Notes under the pieces: generated by a model
Database searches by the model: none
What the model was told of the DNA's origin: nothing
What the model saw: the letters and a program-made list of their open reading frames with translations, nothing else
NCBI GenBank assembly: GCA_038729445.1
Contig: JAVYSA010000001.1
Span: 12,300-76,299, forward strand
From: Thermoplasmata archaeon
Lineage (GTDB): Archaea > Thermoplasmatota > Thermoplasmata > Lutacidiplasmatales > UBA184
DNA length: 64,000 nucleotides
Direction: 5' to 3'
Shown: positions 28,453 through 37,797 of the stretch, piece by piece
Numbering within the stretch: the stretch's first letter is position 1
How the letters are laid out: each line of letters begins with the position of its first letter
Position numbers and translations under genes: made by a program

Positions 28453-28965
28453 TTAGCGCGTCGGCGGCCCCCCGTCCAGCTCCTCGAGGCTCCACTCCCG
28501 GTACCGTCGCCCGCCCGAGAGGCGGCCGATCGTCCGGTGGAGGCCCGACCAGACCGTCCCCGACGGGATCGTCCCCGCGTCGAGCGCATCGAGCCACCGG
28601 ACCAGGACCTCCCGCTCGGCACCGCCGCCCTCCTGGGCGGAGGGGACGGGCCGGGCCTCCCGGAGGACCTCGACGCCCTCCGGCCGCACGTGCCAGACGC
28701 CGACGAACGCGGCCCGGTGGGGACCCGTCGCGGCCGCGAGGCGCGCCGCGGCGCCGCGGCGCGCGAGGGCGACCGCCACCCAGCTCGCCCAGCGCCGCCG
28801 CCGCAGCGCCTGGCCGAGGGCCTCCGTCGCCGCCGCGCGCTTGAGCTCGATGACACCGATCTCCGATCCCCGCCGGGCGACCAGGTCGAAGTAGTCGGTC
28901 CCGTCCGGGTCCGCGTGGACCCGGTACCCCCGGGCCTCCAGCCAGGCCCGGACCGGGACCCGCAT
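28453..28965 (-). CDS. Hjc-like PD-(D/E)xK nuclease (Holliday-junction-resolvase fold) with about 60-aa C-terminal extension
   Basis: The C-terminal 170 aa of long ORF 28453..31521 read MRVPVRAWLEARGYRVHADPDGTDYFDLVARRGSEIGVIELK.... This E...D...E-x-K arrangement and its spacing are typical of archaeal Hjc. It begins about 38 nt after the mutL stop. Confidence 0.55.
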   Translation of the reverse strand: MRVPVRAWLEARGYRVHADPDGTDYFDLVARRGSEIGVIELKRAAATEALGQALRRRRWASWVAVALARRGAAARLAAATGPHRAAFVGVWHVRPEGVEVLREARPVPSAQEGGGAEREVLVRWLDALDAGTIPSGTVWSGLHRTIGRLSGGRRYREWSLEELDGGPPTR

Positions 28966-29003
28966 CGCCGCCTCGGAGGGGAACGGCTCGCCCGGGGCAG
29001 CCG

Positions 29004-30808
<1,805 letters not shown>

Positions 30809-30812
<4 letters not shown>

Positions 30813-33418
30813 CGGTCCCCCTCCGCCGGGGGCGATCCGGCGAGCCGCGCCTTGAGCTCCGCGAGGCGCCGCAGCGCCTCGACCGGCGTGATCCGCTCGA
30901 CGTCGATCGACCGGATCTCCTCCTCGACCGGCGACGGGGGCGCGGCTTGGGCCACGAGGATCGCCTGCGCGTAGCGGGGACCGCCCCCGGCGGCGGCCCG
31001 CCGGTCCGCGAGCGCGAGGCCTTCCGCCTCGAGCCGCCGCAGCAACCGCTGGGCCTCCTCGAGGACCGGGGCCGGCAGCCCGGCGAGCCGCGCGACGTGG
31101 ACCCCATAGCTGCGGTCGGTCGCCCCGGGGACCAGGCGGTGGAGGAAGACGATCCCGTCCGGGTGCTCCCGGACGGCGAGGTGCGCGAGCCGGGCCGAGG
31201 GGAGGCGCTCGACCAGCTCGGTGAGGTGGTGGTAGTGCGTCGCCAGGATGGTGCGCGCGCGGACGGTGTCGTGGAGGTGCCGCAGGACCGCCCATGCGAT
31301 CGCGACGCCGTCGAACGTGCTCGTGCCCCGGCCGACCTCGTCGAGCAGCACGAGCGAGCGGGGGGTCGCCTCCCGAAGGATCTCGGCGACCTCCGCCATC
31401 TCGACCATGAAGCTCGACTTGCCGCGGCCGATCTCGTCGGTGAAGCCCATCCGCGTGTAGAGGCCGTCGACCCGGCCGATCCGGGCAAACCGGGCCGGCA
31501 CGAACGCCCCGCTCTGCGCAAGGACCACCAGGAGGCCGACCTGGCGCATGTAGGTCGACTTGCCGGACATGTTCGGCCCGGTCAGGACGAGGAGGCGGGA
31601 CCCCTCCCCCTCCAGGTCGACGTCGTTCGGGACGAACCGCTCGGCGAGGAGGCGGTCGAGGATCGGGTGGCGGCCCTCGCGGATCCTGAGCTCGGTCGAC
31701 TCGTCGACCTCGGGCCGGACGCAGCGCCCGTGGACGGCCCGGGTCGCGAACGACTGCAGGGCATCGAGCGAGCCCAGCGCCCGGCCGATGCGGTGGAGCG
31801 CCGGAGCCGCGCGGTCGACCTCCTCGAGGAGGCGATCCCATGCCCGGAGCTCCTCCTCCCGGACCCGGGCCCGGGCGGCCAAGACCCGCGCGGAGCAGGC
31901 CTCGAGGCGGTCGGTGGTGTACCGTTCCGCCTGGGCGACGGTCTGGCGCCGGCGGTAGTGGGAAGGGACCTTCCCGGTGTGGGCCCGCCCGACCTCGAGG
32001 TAGTAGCCGAAGATCTGGTTGTAGCGGACGTGCAGCGTGCGGATTCCGGTCGCCTCCCTCTCCTCGCGCTCGAGGGCCTCGATCTCCCGGACCGCCGCGT
32101 CCTCCTCTGCGCGGGCCCGGTCGACCTCCTCCGCGTGACCGGGGCGGAGGAAGCCGCCCGCCTCGAGGGTCGGGGGGATCTCCGCGGGGAGCGACGCCTC
32201 GAGCGTGGCCAACAGCTCTCCGGGCGGAACGAGGTCCCGGACGAGGCGCTCGACGAGCTCCGATCCCAGCCCGGATCCCAGGGCGGACCGCAGCGGACCG
32301 AGCCGTCGCAGGCCGTCGCGCAGCGCCCCGAGGTCGGGGGGCCGGACCCTCCGCCCGACGACGCGGGAGGCGATCCGGCCGATGTCCGGTGCGTGGGAGA
32401 GGTGCTCCCGGACGGCGGCGAGGGCCGCGGGCGCCCCGACCAGGGCCGCGACCGCGTCCTGGCGGTCCCGGATCGGCCCGACATCAGCGAGTGGGTGGGT
32501 CAGCCAGAAGGAGAGGGTCCTCCGCCCCGCGGCGGTCCGCGTCTCGTCCCAGCTGCCGACGAGCGTCGAGCCCGAGGGATCGTCCGGGTTCATCGGACGG
32601 CTGATCTCGAGGTGGCGCAGGGTCTTGGCGTCGAGGCGCAGCGTCCGCGGGGGAGCCCCCCGGCCGGCCGGACCCAACAGGGGAAGGAGCCGGGGCTGCG
32701 TCGCGGCGAGATAGGCGGCCAGGGAGCGGTCGGCGAGCGCGACGGCCGGGGATTCCGGCGGGGCGGCCCCGGCCGAGGGGGATGCCTCCTCCGCGAGGGG
32801 GGGCGGGGAGGCCTCCACGGCGGCGGAGGGGAACTCGCGCCGGAGGACTGCGCCCAGCGGGCCCTCCGCCTCGGCCGCGGGAGCGACGAGGATCTCCCGA
32901 GGGAAGTACGGGGCCAGGGCCGCCGCGACCGACTCCGGGCGGGGCTCGTCCGAGAGCCCGTGGTACCACTCGCCGGTCGAGACGTCGACGGCGGCCCACG
33001 CCCCGGCCCCCTCCGCGACGACCGCCGCCGCGAGGAAGTTGTGGTCGGGTCCTCCCAGGATGCCGTCCTCGACGGCGGTGCCCGGCGTGACGACGCGGGT
33101 CACCTCCCGTCGGAAGAGGCCCTTGCCGTCCGCCGGCTCCTCGACCTGGTCGCACAGGGCGACGCGGTGGCCCTTGCGGACGAGCCGGGCGAGGTACGAC
33201 TCGACCGCGTGGTGCGGCACGCCCGCCATCGGCGTCCGCTGGCCGTGTGCGTCCGGCGCGCGGGCGGTCAGCTGGACGTCGAGCTCGCGGGCGAGCAGCT
33301 TCGCATCCTCCCCGAACGTCTCGTAGAAGTCCCCGACCCGGAACAGGACGAGGTGCCCGGGGTAGCGCGCGCGGACCCGCTCGTACTGCTCGAGGAGCGG
33401 GGTCAGGGAGGCGCCCAT
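30809..33418 (-). CDS. mutS: DNA mismatch repair protein MutS
   Basis: 869 aa. It has the N-terminal mismatch-binding domain TPLLEQYERVRARYPGHLVLFRVGDFYETFGEDA, the Walker A GPNMSGKST and the ABC signature. Confidence 0.9.
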
Positions 33419-33441
33419 CGGCCCGGCAGTCGGCGAGGCCC

Positions 33442-33448
33442 ATATAAT
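33442..33448 (-). promoter_or_regulatory. TATA box for mutS (leaderless)
   Basis: The minus strand reads gggATTATATGgg about 25 nt upstream of the mutS ATG at 33418. Confidence 0.45.
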
Positions 33449-33468
33449 CCCGAGCGCGCCCGCCGCGG

Positions 33469-33552
33469 CGCTGAGGGGGAGATTTGAACTCCCGCGGCGT
33501 CGCCGCCACCAGCTTTCAAGGCTGGCGCCTTTCCGGGCTAGGCTACCTCAGC
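33469..33552 (-). tRNA. tRNA-Ser (anticodon UGA)
   Basis: The minus-strand fold has a 7-bp acceptor (GCTGAGG/CCTCAGC), D-arm, anticodon stem CCAGC/GCTGG with loop CTTGAAA (anticodon TGA), a long variable arm (TGGCGGCGACGCCGC) and T-arm GGGAG-TTCAAAT-CTCCC. Discriminator is G and CCA is not encoded. Coordinates are ±1. Confidence 0.8.
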
Positions 33553-33609
33553 GCGCCCCGGCGGAAGCCGGGGCGGCTACAAGAAGGCCACCCGCGGGGG
33601 CCGGCCGAG

Positions 33610-33707
33610 TGCAGGTGCCGGGAGTTCCGCGCCGGGAACGGCCCCGGCGATTCGAACCCGGGCGGTCAGCTTGGAGGGCTGACATCCTACCGCTAGATTA
33701 CACCTGC
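33610..33707 (-). tRNA. tRNA-Gly (anticodon UCC) candidate with about 27-nt insertion in the T-arm (possible non-canonical intron)
   Basis: The minus strand reads GCAGGTG-TA-ATCT-AGCGGTA-GGAT-G-TCAGC-CCTCCAA-GCTGA-CCGC-CCGGG-TTCGAAT-[CGCCGGGGCCGTTCCCGGCGCGGAACT]-CCCGG-CACCTGC-A. Acceptor and T stems pair perfectly only if the bracketed 27 nt are removed. The insert itself forms a 7-bp hairpin. Position 33 is C, which is unusual. Confidence 0.55.
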
Positions 33708-33744
33708 GCGGACCGGCCGGCACGCGGAGAGACGGGGGGACTAC

Positions 33745-34314
33745 CTAACCTTTCCCGCCGCCCGTGGCGGGGGCCAGGTCGACGAGCGCAACGCGCTCGA
33801 GGACCAGCGCCTCCCATGCGGAGCGCGGCACGATCTCCCGCTCGGCGGCGGAGATGCCGAGGCGCTCGAGCGTCGCCTCGGTCGGCGGCCGGGGGTAGGC
33901 GGTCGGATCGGGCCGGAGGCCGAACGCCTCCCGGACCTCGGCGAGCGAGCGCGGACGCTCGACCAGGAGCACGAACTGGGTCGTCCCCTCGTGGACGCCG
34001 ACCTTCGCCAGGGCCCGCCCCAGCTGGTCGTCGCCGGCGACGTAGAGGGCGAGCTCCGCTCCCCGGTCGCGCAGCCGTTGCGCGCCCTCGCGCCGGCTCC
34101 GCCCCAGGTGCGCCCACGCCGAGAGGAGATGGCGCTCCCCCGCGATCGCCTCCGCGTCGAACAGCGCGACGAGCGGACCGTCCGGATCGGCGAGACGCCG
34201 GATCGCGGAGACGAGCTCGGCCGAGGTCGGCCGGCCGGGGACGGCGCGGCATGCGCCCTCCGCCTGCAGAGACCGGACGGGGGAAACCCCCGCCGGAGGG
34301 GAGGTCTCCGTCAT
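33745..34314 (-). CDS. cgi121: KEOPS complex subunit Cgi121
   Basis: 189 aa, C-terminal part of listed ORF 33745..35826. LFDAEAIAGERHLLSAWAHLGRS...LALYVAGDDQLGRALAKVGVHEGTTQFVLLV matches the Cgi121 family. Confidence 0.65.
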   Translation of the reverse strand: MTETSPPAGVSPVRSLQAEGACRAVPGRPTSAELVSAIRRLADPDGPLVALFDAEAIAGERHLLSAWAHLGRSRREGAQRLRDRGAELALYVAGDDQLGRALAKVGVHEGTTQFVLLVERPRSLAEVREAFGLRPDPTAYPRPPTEATLERLGISAAEREIVPRSAWEALVLERVALVDLAPATGGGKG

Positions 34315-34922
34315 TGGCGCATGAACCGGAGGAACTCCTCCTTCGTCCGCGGCGCGAGGGTATAGTTCTCCTCCCGCTCGCGTCCGATGGTCGAGGTCGG
34401 CGTGACCCCGTAGTCGTGGCCGGGGAGGACCACCAGCGCCGGGTCTAGCCGGGCGACGATCCCGTGGAGGGTCTCGTACATCGCCTCCGGATCCCCTCCG
34501 GGGAGGTCGGTCCGCCCGCACTCCCCCACGAACAGCGTGTCCCCCGTGGCGACGTGGCCCTCGAACCGGTAGAAGACCGAATCCGGCGTGTGCCCGGGGG
34601 TGTGGAGGACCTCGATGCGGAGGCGGCCGGCCTCGAGCGTGGCCCCGTCGTCCACCGGAAGGTCCGGATGGCGGGGGCTCGCCCGGTGGGCGACCACCCT
34701 GGCCCCGGTCCGGGCGACGACGTCGGCATTCCCCGCCACATGGTCCGGGTGGTGGTGGGTGTTCAGCACGTACGCCACCCGGATCCCTCGCCGGTCGATC
34801 GCCTCGATCACCTCCTCGGGGCCGAAGGACGGGTCGATCACGACCCCGTAGCCTCCCTCGCCTTCCGCCACGAGGTAGGTGAAGTTCTGGTACGGGCCGA
34901 CGTGGAACTGCTCGAGGAGCAC
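34311..34922 (-). CDS. MBL-fold metallo-hydrolase (glyoxalase II / hydroxyacylglutathione hydrolase-like)
   Basis: LLEQFHVGPYQNFTYLV...THHHPDHVAGN...HTPGH...LPGHDYG. The likely GTG start at 34922 is internal to listed ORF 34311..35045. The stop overlaps the cgi121 start in an ATGA overlap. Confidence 0.8.
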   Translation of the reverse strand: MLLEQFHVGPYQNFTYLVAEGEGGYGVVIDPSFGPEEVIEAIDRRGIRVAYVLNTHHHPDHVAGNADVVARTGARVVAHRASPRHPDLPVDDGATLEAGRLRIEVLHTPGHTPDSVFYRFEGHVATGDTLFVGECGRTDLPGGDPEAMYETLHGIVARLDPALVVLPGHDYGVTPTSTIGREREENYTLAPRTKEEFLRFMRQ

Positions 34923-35043
34923 GGGGCGAACAGCGGACTCGGGTATTTGACCGTCGGGAGGGGATCGGGCCCTCCCCTCCGGTGCTCGCCGGCGGTGCGC
35001 CGCTCCTTTTAAGCCCGGGAGGGTCGCGAGTCCGGAGGGTTCC

Positions 35044-36054
35044 ATGGCGGACGACGCCGCGGTCGCGGTCGATCGGCTGACGAAGGTTTACGAGGGAGGC
35101 GTCCGTGCCCTCGACGGGATCTCGTTCGAGGTCCGTCCGGGAGAGGCGTTCGGGCTCCTCGGCCCGAACGGCGCCGGCAAGACGACGACCGTGTCGATCC
35201 TGACCACGCTCGTCCAGCCGACCGGAGGCACGGCCCAGGTCGACGGGATCGACGTGACCGAGCGGCCGGAGGAGGTCCGCCGGCGGATCGGCCTCGCCTT
35301 CCAGGTCTCGACCGCCGACGGCGAGTTGACCGGCCGGGAGAACCTCGAGGTCGCCGCGGGCCTCGAGGGGATGCCACGGGCGCTGGCCCGGCGCCGGATC
35401 GACGAGCTGCTCGAGCGGATGCAGCTCGCCGCGGCGGCCGACCGGCCGGCGAAGACCTACTCCGGGGGGATGCGCCGCCGGCTGGAGCTCGCCGTCGGGG
35501 TCGTCCATGCCCCGAAGATCCTCTTCCTCGACGAGCCGACCCTGGGGCTCGATCCGCAAAGCCGGGCCGGATTCTGGGAGTTCATCCGCCGCCTGCGCGA
35601 GGAGACCGGGCTCACGCTCGTGCTGTGCACCCACTACCTCGAGGAGGCCGACCAGCTCTGCGAGCGGATCGCGATCGTCGACCACGGCCGGATCGCGGCG
35701 ATCGGCACCCCGGCGGAGCTCAAGGACCGCATCGGCGGGGACACGGTCGCGGTCCGGCCGACCGCCGCCGCCGACCTGGAACCGATCCTCCGCGGGATTC
35801 CGGGCGTGCTGGGGGTCGCCGCGCACGACGGGTCCTGGCGCGTCAAGTGCTCCCGCGGGGAGTCGCTGGTGCCCGCGATCGTGACGGCCTGCGATCGGGC
35901 CGGCGTCGCGCTGGCGAGCGTCGAGATCCGCAAGCCGAGCCTCGAGGAGGTCTTCCTCGAGCTCACCGGACGAGAGTACCGGGAGGAGGAGGGGAGCGCG
36001 GGCTCGTTCTTCGCGGAGCGGTTCCAGCAGATGCGCCAGGCGGGGAGGCGCTGA
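35044..36054 (+). CDS. ABC transporter ATP-binding protein
   Basis: Walker A GPNGAGKTT, signature YSGGMRRRLE, Walker B ILFLDEPTLGLD and an H-loop CTHYLEEA. Confidence 0.9.
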   Translation: MADDAAVAVDRLTKVYEGGVRALDGISFEVRPGEAFGLLGPNGAGKTTTVSILTTLVQPTGGTAQVDGIDVTERPEEVRRRIGLAFQVSTADGELTGRENLEVAAGLEGMPRALARRRIDELLERMQLAAAADRPAKTYSGGMRRRLELAVGVVHAPKILFLDEPTLGLDPQSRAGFWEFIRRLREETGLTLVLCTHYLEEADQLCERIAIVDHGRIAAIGTPAELKDRIGGDTVAVRPTAAADLEPILRGIPGVLGVAAHDGSWRVKCSRGESLVPAIVTACDRAGVALASVEIRKPSLEEVFLELTGREYREEEGSAGSFFAERFQQMRQAGRR

Positions 36055-36878
36055 TGCTGCAGGAGCTCTACGCCCTCCTCCGCCGGGAGTTCCTGCGGTG
36101 GGTCCGCAGCCCGATCTGGATCTTCACGAGCCTCCTCCTGCCGATCCTCTACCTGATCCTCTTCGGCCAAGGGTTCGGCCAGGGGCTCAACCAGTGCCCC
36201 CCGCCGCTCGGCCTCTCCTGCTTCCTGGGCGCGCCGAACTACTTCTCGTTCTTCTCGGTCGGGATGGTCGGCTTCGTCGCCCTCACCATGTCCCTGTTCA
36301 GCGGGGCGAACATCATCTTCGACAAGGGGGCGGGCATCATCAAGCGCCAGGTCGCGACGCCGGCGCCGCGCTCGGCCCTGTTCCTCTCCCCGCTCCTCTT
36401 CCGCTCGCTCATGGGGCTCGTCCCCGCCTTCCTCGTCCTCGGGCTCGCGGTCGTCCTCGCCCACGTGCCGGGGTTCGTCGGGCTCACCATCAGCCACAAC
36501 CCCGGTGTGGTCGGCGCCCTCGAGATCGTCGCCGCGGTCGTCGTCCTGTCGCTGATGTTCAACGCCCTCTTCCTCGCCTTCGGCTTCGCGCTCGAGAGCC
36601 CGAACTCCTACTTCGGCATCGTCAACATGCTCAACCTGCCGATCCTCTTCCTTTCCAACGCCCTCTACCCGCCGCTCGACGAGCCGGGCTGGCTCCTCTC
36701 GATCTCCACGTACAATCCGGTCTCCCTGTGCATCAACGTGATGCGCATCAACCTCTTCGGCTCGGGCGCCTACTACGCGGAGCCCGCGGCGGTCTACCTC
36801 GCCGGCCTGCTCGCATGGGCGGCTCTCTTCCTGGTCGCCGCCGTCGCCGTGGGGCGCCGGGCGATGCGGACCCCGTAG
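36054..36878 (+). CDS. ABC-2 type transporter permease
   Basis: ATG overlaps the ATPase stop in a TGATG overlap. The product has 6 predicted TM helices and the ABC-2 family pattern. Confidence 0.8.
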   Translation: MLQELYALLRREFLRWVRSPIWIFTSLLLPILYLILFGQGFGQGLNQCPPPLGLSCFLGAPNYFSFFSVGMVGFVALTMSLFSGANIIFDKGAGIIKRQVATPAPRSALFLSPLLFRSLMGLVPAFLVLGLAVVLAHVPGFVGLTISHNPGVVGALEIVAAVVVLSLMFNALFLAFGFALESPNSYFGIVNMLNLPILFLSNALYPPLDEPGWLLSISTYNPVSLCINVMRINLFGSGAYYAEPAAVYLAGLLAWAALFLVAAVAVGRRAMRTP

Positions 36879-36891
36879 GGGCGGCCGCCCG

Positions 36892-37797
36892 CTAGGGGCC
36901 GAACTCGGGCGCCCGATCCCGGTCGGAGGCGGCTCCCGTCGCCGCGTTCACCAGGATCCGGCCCCGGGGGCCCTCGCAGTACCACAGCGGCAGGTGGACC
37001 AGGGCGAACGCCCCGAGCCGGACGTCGTCCGGTCCGGGGGAGACCCGCCGGGTCTCCACGACCACCGTCCCCCCGAGCTGCTCCGTGTGGTCGACCCGGA
37101 CCGTGTGGCGGGAGCGGATCCATTCGAGCGCGAGGGCACCGGCGTCGGCCGGACCGATCACCGGAGGGATGCGCTCCGCCCCCTCCGGGAGGTTTGGGGA
37201 GAGCTCGTACGCCGCGCCTTCCCAGGCCTCGACCCGGGAGTCGAGGCCATGGACGGCGAGCAGGTGCTCCTCGACCTCGCCGGGGCCCCCGTGGGGCGCC
37301 GGAATGCGGACGCGGTACGGGGCGACGAAGTAGGGGATGGCGCGCAGCGTCCGCCGGAGCGTGCGGTCCGGGACGATCCGATCGAGGTCGTCGCGGGTCA
37401 GCCGCGGCACCACGTATCGGTCCCCCTGCGGGACGACGACCAGAGGGGGCTCCAGCGGGAGCTCCCCCCCGACCGGCGACGGGGGATCGCCCCCGAGGAG
37501 GAGCTCCCCCAACGCGGGGCCGAGCGTCGTGGGGTCGAGGATCTCGATCGCCCGCTCGGAGGCGAGCGACCGCGCGACCGGCCCGGGGTCCGACGGGTAC
37601 ACCGCGATCCGATGGACGGCCTCGGGGGGGAACGCCGGCTCGAGGTCGTGGGGGGTGCGGACCTCCCGGAGGAGGATCAGGGCCCGCCGGTCCTTTGGGC
37701 GCCAGGCCACGATCCCTTCCGGCCGGTCGGCGACCTGGTAGTCGGCCCCCTCGAGGATCCGGCCCAGTCGGCGCCACCGGTCGCCGTCCGTCGCCAC
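36892..37797 (-). CDS. Hypothetical protein (301 aa)
   Basis: Protein-like composition with non-repetitive sequence (MATDGDRWRRLGRILEGADYQVADRPEGIVAWRPKDRRALILLREV...). No family is recognised. It lies divergent from cdc48. Confidence 0.5.
   Translation of the reverse strand: MATDGDRWRRLGRILEGADYQVADRPEGIVAWRPKDRRALILLREVRTPHDLEPAFPPEAVHRIAVYPSDPGPVARSLASERAIEILDPTTLGPALGELLLGGDPPSPVGGELPLEPPLVVVPQGDRYVVPRLTRDDLDRIVPDRTLRRTLRAIPYFVAPYRVRIPAPHGGPGEVEEHLLAVHGLDSRVEAWEGAAYELSPNLPEGAERIPPVIGPADAGALALEWIRSRHTVRVDHTEQLGGTVVVETRRVSPGPDDVRLGAFALVHLPLWYCEGPRGRILVNAATGAASDRDRAPEFGP

Follow-up and report, generated by a model that had tools for sequence, protein, structure and literature searches.

How a tRNA gene whose T-arm is interrupted by a hairpin might still yield a working tRNA is the question raised by one locus in a 64,000-nucleotide stretch of archaeal DNA, here called the window. 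The answer proposed, with a probability of roughly 0.88, is that the insert is a bulge-helix-bulge (BHB) intron lying in the T-loop of a functional tRNA-Gly(UCC) gene and that it is removed by the ordinary protein-dependent splicing of archaea. The host is an uncultured soil archaeon with a high G+C content, a member of the class Thermoplasmata, and its relatives include Candidatus Lutacidiplasma. The G+C content of the window is 68-77%, and its MutS protein is identical to one annotated in a "Thermoplasmata archaeon" MAG. The paper naming the order Lutacidiplasmatales describes it as a group of soil archaea with mutLS and a G+C content of about 69%; the paper does not mention introns.

The gene is read from the minus strand, and its parts are as follows.

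33610 to 33707, minus strand: complete tRNA-Gly(UCC) precursor gene, 98 nt, identified from the sequence, from ARAGORN on the spliced form and from orthologues in 116 genome stretches.

33651 to 33707, minus strand: 5' exon, tRNA positions 1-59 (acceptor 5' strand, D-arm, anticodon arm, variable region, 5' strand of the T-stem, and T-loop U54-A59), with little or no variation among 114 distinct orthologues at all but a few sites.

33624 to 33650, minus strand: intron UCGCCGGGGCCGUUCCCGGCGCGGAAC, 27 nt, between tRNA positions 59 and 60, placed by the BHB geometry together with a variable first intron base and an invariant U60.

33610 to 33623, minus strand: 3' exon, made up of U60, CCCGG (3' strand of the T-stem), CACCUGC (acceptor 3' strand) and A73.

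33673 to 33675, minus strand: anticodon UCC, from the sequence and ARAGORN.

33676, minus strand: position 33, a C where U is near-universal elsewhere.

Followed from 33707 to 33610, the 5' half reads GCAGGUG UA AUCU AGCGGUA GGAU G UCAGC CCUCCAA GCUGA CCGC, and the remainder reads CCGGG UUCGAAU CGCCGGGGCCGUUCCCGGCGCGGAACU CCCGG CACCUGC A. The mature tRNA-Gly(UCC) has 71 nt after splicing, with the discriminator A at 33610, and CCA is not encoded. The anticodon UCC sits in a 7-nt loop on a 5-bp stem, the acceptor, D and T arms are standard, and G18, G19 and U54 U55 C56 ... A58 are all present, as seen in the sequence and in the ARAGORN structure of the spliced form. Archaeal tRNA-Gly usually has A73, G1-C72, C2-G71, C35 and C36, and every one of these can be read in the window gene. 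The initial annotation had described a tRNA-Gly(UCC) with a C at position 33, with perfect acceptor stem, D-arm, anticodon arm and T-stem, and with a T-arm insertion of about 27 nt that folds into a 7-bp hairpin; it did not state the strand. On the minus strand this description is borne out. The four stems are perfect, the insertion is 27 nt with CGCCGGG/CCCGGCG as its hairpin, the C is at 33676, and ARAGORN reports tRNA-Gly(tcc) for all 114 orthologues once they are spliced in silico. GGA makes up 18 of the 169 glycine codons in three window genes, and since these codons are in use, a UCC tRNA is needed.

The intron region has the strict form of the archaeal splicing motif, hBHBh', in which two 3-nt bulges on opposite strands have a 4-bp central helix (H) between them. 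Its elements are these.

33657 to 33661, minus strand: 5' strand of the outer helix h, CCGGG (positions 49-53), which pairs with 33618-33622 and is invariant in 114 sequences.

33653 to 33656, minus strand: exon strand of the central helix H, U54 U55 C56 G57, which pairs with 33626-33629.

33650 to 33652, minus strand: 5' bulge, A58 A59 followed by U, of the form AAN in 114/114, with predicted cleavage between 33651 and 33650.

33630 to 33649, minus strand: inner helix h' and its loop, CGCCGGG(G) CCGU (U)CCCGGCG, intron bases 2-21.

33626 to 33629, minus strand: intron strand of the central helix H, CGGA (intron bases 22-25), giving U54-A, U55.G, C56-G and G57-C.

33623 to 33625, minus strand: 3' bulge, A C followed by U60, of the form NNU in 114/114, with predicted cleavage between 33624 and 33623.

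The outer helix is thus the 5-bp T-stem itself (49-53/61-65), and the inner helix has seven Watson-Crick pairs and one G.U pair, its length ranging from 6 to 11 bp among orthologues. Folded alone and without constraints, the T-arm and intron of the window take the hBHBh' structure at minimum energy (-24.8 kcal/mol); a fold of all 98 nt of the precursor favours a competing GGGUUC/GAACUC pairing and shows neither cloverleaf nor BHB. For the orthologues, the unconstrained minimum is the BHB in 73 of 114 sequences, and in 102 the BHB comes within 2 kcal/mol of the minimum. All four H pairs are formed in 96 of the 114, and three of the four in the other sequences with a single mismatched pair (17), which is mostly A57 opposite G or C. 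Other central helices were considered (GUUC/GAAC, UCGA and CGAA) and were replaced by UUCG/CGGA, since they led to incorrect bulge sizes or left a T-loop of 5 nt. In one sequence, L009:2716-2817, a U is added at the 3' splice region (...CGGAUCU/UCCCGG), which makes a 4-nt bulge or an 8-nt T-loop; the added base may be genuine or may come from an error of assembly.

The archaeal tRNA splicing endonuclease cuts between the second and third base of each bulge, so the cuts are placed after A59 and before U60. The initial annotation had put the splice one base further 3', at 60/61, and had called for a search for a BHB motif at the junctions. The motif is there, in its strict form, and is conserved with compensatory changes in 114 orthologues, and it moves the splice to 59/60. 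In the window the two parses cannot be told apart by their product, since both bases are U and the mature sequence is identical. Among the 114 orthologues, however, the base after A59 is T in 54, A in 47, C in 9 and G in 4, while the U60 before CCCGG is invariant, and for this reason the splice is read as 59/60. A splice after U60 would leave a variable position 60 in the 60 of 114 sequences with A, C or G after A59 and would discard the invariant U, and only the 59/60 register sets both cuts between the second and third base of a 3-nt bulge. Splicing at 60/61, or removal of the intron by a route that does not use the BHB, is therefore highly improbable. Taking out the intron at the bulge sites restores the T-loop UUCGAAU in the window and UUCRAAU across the orthologues, and with it the cloverleaf.

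In the proposed pathway, the gene would be transcribed with the 27-nt intron inside the T-loop, and the mature tRNA would read GGA. The T-stem would stay paired in the precursor, and U54-G57 and the CGGA of the intron would form the 4-bp helix, with three unpaired bases on either side of it on opposite strands and the remainder of the intron folded as a 7-8 bp hairpin. EndA would recognise the strict BHB wherever it is placed and would cut between the second and third base of each bulge, that is, after A59 and before U60. Ligation by RtcB would then give a 71-nt tRNA with the T-loop UUCGAAU, and CCA would be added after splicing. We infer the cleavage, the ligation and the two enzymes from established knowledge of archaeal tRNA splicing. 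Every known type of EndA cuts the strict BHB. To our knowledge, EndA is universal in archaea.

The comparative evidence comes from a scan of bacterial and archaeal genomes, one for each species, in which the 27-nt probe was taken from the D and anticodon arms, with C or U allowed at position 33. The gene was found in 116 genome stretches; the probe calls for an exact 27-nt match, so the statement that all copies bear the intron applies to species sharing that arm sequence. The 80 records listed of the 116 are all Thermoplasmata or Thermoplasmatota MAGs and include Candidatus Lutacidiplasma silvani and a Lutacidiplasmatales MAG. Immediately after A59, every one of the 120 complete copies, which represent 114 distinct sequences, carries an insert; its length is 27-34 nt and most commonly 30 nt. 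Across the 114 distinct orthologues, the exon columns are near-invariant and the intron columns are variable. The clade-specific 5' half can be written GGAUGUCAGCC[C/U]UCCAAGCUGACC[G/A]CCCGGGUUC[G/A]AA, which is followed across the exon-exon junction by UCCCGGCACCUGCA. Only position 67 varies in the 3' exon: it is either A or G, in covariation with position 6 (U-A in 83, U.G in 18 and C-G in 13). No MAG with two complete copies of the gene was seen among the 80 records listed of the 116. In one case, MAG JOPF257, two contigs (L037 and L063) each end inside or beside the tRNA gene, which suggests that the assembly of that MAG broke at the locus.

Covariation was tested on a plain MAFFT alignment, with pairing partners slid by 1-3 columns as one control and 500 shuffles as another. 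The named structure pairs 96.8% of cells, compared with 35-46% for the slid partners, and none of the 500 shuffles reached the observed covariation. In the inner helix h', compensatory changes on both sides occur in all seven scored pairs, and RNAalifold predicts this helix independently. The central helix H is 96.3% paired in the 114 sequences, and its variation is confined to the intron strand, where A or G stands opposite U54 and U55 with the pairing kept, apart from one fully compensated A57-U.

This pattern bears on whether the insert is removed at all. If it never were, the product would be an RNA with an extra hairpin in its T-loop, a tRNA-like molecule with a role beyond ordinary decoding. 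Such a reading would suit a hairpin that is stable and conserved and a C33 that is unusual for an elongator tRNA, and the spliced product is so far predicted from sequence. It is nevertheless very unlikely. An extra arm needs no 3-4-3 geometry, yet this geometry is exact in 96 of the 114 sequences and nearly so in the rest, and the intron bases facing U54 and U55 alternate solely between A and G, so that the pairing is kept. An unspliced T-loop would be unable to form the U54-A58 contact or the contacts of G18/G19 with U55/C56. In addition, GGA codons are used, and the exact 27-nt probe found no second UCC gene in the same assemblies. Splicing of a BHB intron is thus the reading preferred here. 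A non-canonical intron in the T-arm had also been the first suggestion made for this locus, and the strict BHB, the covariation and the normal tRNA obtained on splicing all the orthologues now support it.

The surroundings of the gene are conserved as well, and the neighbouring features are listed below.

28453 to 36900: conserved gene order in the window, with an ABC transporter permease and ATPase on the plus strand.

34311 to 35045, minus strand: metallo-beta-lactamase.

About 33745 to 34347, minus strand: Cgi121-like gene.

33742 to 33753, minus strand: A/T-rich element AAAGGUUAGGUA, resembling a BRE/TATA sequence, 35-46 nt upstream of the mature 5' end.

33467 to 33552: tRNA-Ser(UGA), the downstream neighbour of tRNA-Gly.

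30809 to 33418, minus strand: MutS, then MutL, also on the minus strand.

The order ABC transporter, metallo-beta-lactamase, Cgi121-like gene, tRNA-Gly, tRNA-Ser, MutS and MutL is syntenic, and at least 94 loci have MutS beside the two tRNA genes. For example, contigs P0003-P0006, in which MutS is 66-69% identical, have the same gene order with a gap of ~340 bp before MutS, and the gap in each contig holds the same interrupted tRNA-Gly and then tRNA-Ser. In the loci where it adjoins the pair (at least 94), MutS is 47-70% identical to that of the window. With MutS only this similar, the near-invariant exons point to selection rather than recent common descent. Many of the long open reading frames in other frames, such as 33745-35826 (693 aa) and 30947-33487 (846 aa), are spurious and result from the high G+C content.

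Upstream of tRNA-Gly, a conserved element resembling CAAAGCATTAAC lies 35-50 nt away, in DNA that is otherwise ~80% G+C. In 117 distinct upstream regions, A or T accounts for a fraction of 0.64-0.82 at -50 to -48 and at -44 to -41 and for 0.38-0.54 between them; elsewhere upstream the fraction is about 0.1-0.3. The common words are CAAAGC, GCATTA and ATTAAC. In the window, the element overlaps the last codons of the Cgi121-like gene. Judged from its composition and position, it is probably a BRE/TATA promoter. A further box, GGTTTATYC, is conserved in the relatives and precedes tRNA-Ser(UGA) by ~30 nt. The corresponding site in the window (33575-33587, minus strand) reads CCTTCTTGTAGCC, and its TATA-like box is degenerate. 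The two tRNAs may be co-transcribed in the window genome.

Standard tools tend to overlook the gene. ARAGORN in default mode misses it and reports only the neighbouring tRNA-Ser(UGA) at 33467-33552, and a search of the whole window with Rfam at the gathering threshold matches only the same tRNA-Ser. A permissive Rfam scan gives a partial tRNA match at 33644-33700 (25.4 bits against a cutoff of 29, model positions 8-63) that breaks off within the intron. With the intron option in use, ARAGORN calls tRNA-Gly(tcc) in 3 of the 114 unspliced sequences, as against all of the spliced ones. This means that the check by ARAGORN, which had been put forward at the outset, has a divided result: the default run passes over the unspliced gene, whereas the spliced form is called as tRNA-Gly(tcc). 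For six orthologues (L017, L065, L071, L081, L097 and L098), ARAGORN gives a "tRNA-Gly(tcc)" of 71-73 nt that is misbounded and ends inside the intron. tRNAscan-SE 2.0 in archaeal mode looks for non-canonical introns by default (PMC8450103), and pipelines based on it are likely to annotate the intron-bearing gene. A self-splicing group I or II intron was also considered and rejected, as the insert is only 27 nt and Rfam has no match at the locus besides tRNA. Group I and II introns are hundreds of bases long and have a catalytic core.

That default ARAGORN and Rfam at its gathering threshold leave the gene uncalled, and that position 33 is off-consensus, might suggest a decayed tRNA pseudogene, a remnant of integration, or half of a split or permuted tRNA. 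The initial annotation had kept the pseudogene and the split or permuted arrangement as options. Neither fits the alignment. The stems are 100% paired and the exons are essentially invariant in 114 sequences at MutS identities of 47-70%, while the flanks and the intron diverge freely, and the acceptor stem and the intron helix both show compensatory changes. Nothing but 27 nt separates the exons, which are contiguous, colinear and in normal order, and the intron sequence occurs once in the 64-kb window, with no second copy. As for integration, an intron could in principle shield the target of an integrase by disrupting its attachment site. The uninterrupted 3' segment of the tRNA is absent from the viral contigs scanned, so this proposal has no support, and the same absence counts against a remnant. 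All of these origins together are exceedingly improbable, and a functional gene with a spliced intron remains the reading that accounts for the locus.

The C at position 33 deserves attention of its own. U33 is conserved in elongator tRNAs, and C33 is the exception, found in many eukaryotic initiators (PMC5041475). The window gene lacks the uridine expected of an elongator. Among the 114 distinct orthologues, 72 have C33 and 42 have U33, and the adjacent tRNA-Ser genes have U33 in 116 of 116. Since the U33 forms are otherwise the same gene as the C33 forms, C33 is no argument against a tRNA-Gly identity. C33 co-occurs with A67 in 71 of the 72 cases, and the one other case is on a C6-G67 background, which suggests that switches at position 33 have been few, but more than one. 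It is possible that the encoded C33 is converted to U after transcription, by C-to-U editing, in about two thirds of the species. We know of no description of C-to-U tRNA editing at position 33 in archaea. Editing is considered unlikely, and it is more likely that the ribosomes of the clade routinely use an elongator tRNA without the U-turn uridine. The eukaryotic initiator tRNA-Met likewise has a cytidine in place of the U-turn uridine at position 33 (PMC5041475); here, in contrast, the tRNA is an archaeal elongator, and C33 alternates with U33 among related species.

To place the origin of the intron, metagenomes were scanned for an uninterrupted T-arm joined to the same acceptor strand, and at least 120 loci (84 distinct sequences) were recovered. 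Among the matches listed, all are other archaeal tRNA-Gly(UCC) genes, either intron-less or with a canonical 37/38 intron, and all those that can be read at position 33 have U33. None of the listed loci adjoins MutS, and no intron-less allele with the D/anticodon-arm sequence of the clade was seen among the matches listed. The closest of these matches, L219, differs from the mature tRNA of the window only by two extra D-loop bases, by G26U and by C33U. L131, from the same group, adjoins a gene for archaeosine synthase, an enzyme that has its best named relatives among Methanomassiliicoccus proteins (63-65% identity). In this nearest outgroup, the Methanomassiliicoccales-like tRNA-Gly(UCC) has an uninterrupted T-loop. 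Because these relatives have the same tRNA without interruption, the distribution of the genes indicates that the intron was gained within the soil clade, after its split from the Methanomassiliicoccales-like relatives, and has been retained since. Within the same metagenome scan, a large set of loci (L123, L132, L136, L148 and about 30 others) carries tRNA-Gly(UCC) on contigs of ~50-60% G+C. The intron in this set is long and lies in the anticodon loop, at the canonical site or close to it, with the strongly conserved 3' end ...TTGGAGAGGGACGAAAGCCAAC...

The canonical 37/38 introns of tRNA-Gly(UCC) share the same T-arm and acceptor strand with the gene studied here, and presumably one and the same machinery splices both. 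They differ in that they lie in the anticodon loop and draw their central helix from anticodon-loop bases, whereas here the intron lies in the T-loop and the helix is drawn from U54-G57. Non-canonical BHB introns are, as here, short, spliced by proteins, defined by the BHB and located anywhere in the tRNA, with a reported range of 11-129 nt that takes in the length found here, and 59/60 is listed among their known positions (PMC4090602). In the lineages described there, the endonucleases are heterotetrameric, relaxed motifs are numerous and each genome has many disrupted genes. In the present case, by contrast, a mesophilic soil group of Thermoplasmata has a strict hBHBh' at one site in one tRNA across the clade. 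BHB introns at non-canonical positions, 59/60 included, are thus already known, and what is distinctive here is the fixation across the clade, the strict motif in a lineage with few such introns and the alternation of C33 and U33.

The same source states that euryarchaeal tRNA genes have introns at the canonical site only (PMC4090602), and an earlier survey found non-canonical introns to be almost exclusive to Crenarchaeota. The tRNAscan-SE 2.0 survey counted 25 non-canonical introns in 144 euryarchaeal genomes, with 6 in three Methanomassiliicoccales and 1 in five Thermoplasmatales, given as counts without positions or isoacceptors (PMC8450103, Table S7). Such introns are therefore on record in orders neighbouring this one, although the Methanomassiliicoccales-like tRNA-Gly(UCC) genes (L131 and L219) do not have the T-loop intron in common with it. 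The initial annotation had stressed how unusual an intron of this kind would be in the lineage. It was right that they are rare, but a few had already been counted in the neighbouring orders (PMC8450103). Our text search of the literature, a kind of search that is blind to "59/60", returned no description of a T-loop intron in Thermoplasmata.

For practical work, bacterial-type tRNA finders run on MAGs of this clade would return either no gene or a false one. Because finders without archaeal intron models miss the gene, the tRNA counts used in grading MAG quality may be too low for the clade. For biology, a strict T-loop BHB fixed across a large, mesophilic soil and peat clade of Thermoplasmata is a clear exception to the textbook rule that euryarchaea have introns at 37/38 only. 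Its gain can be bracketed, and more than 100 species are at hand for tracing the evolution of a "late" tRNA intron. Ribosomes that use an elongator tRNA without U33 would, if this is true, be unusual in themselves, and the alternation of C33 and U33 among these species provides a natural series for asking how essential U33 is.
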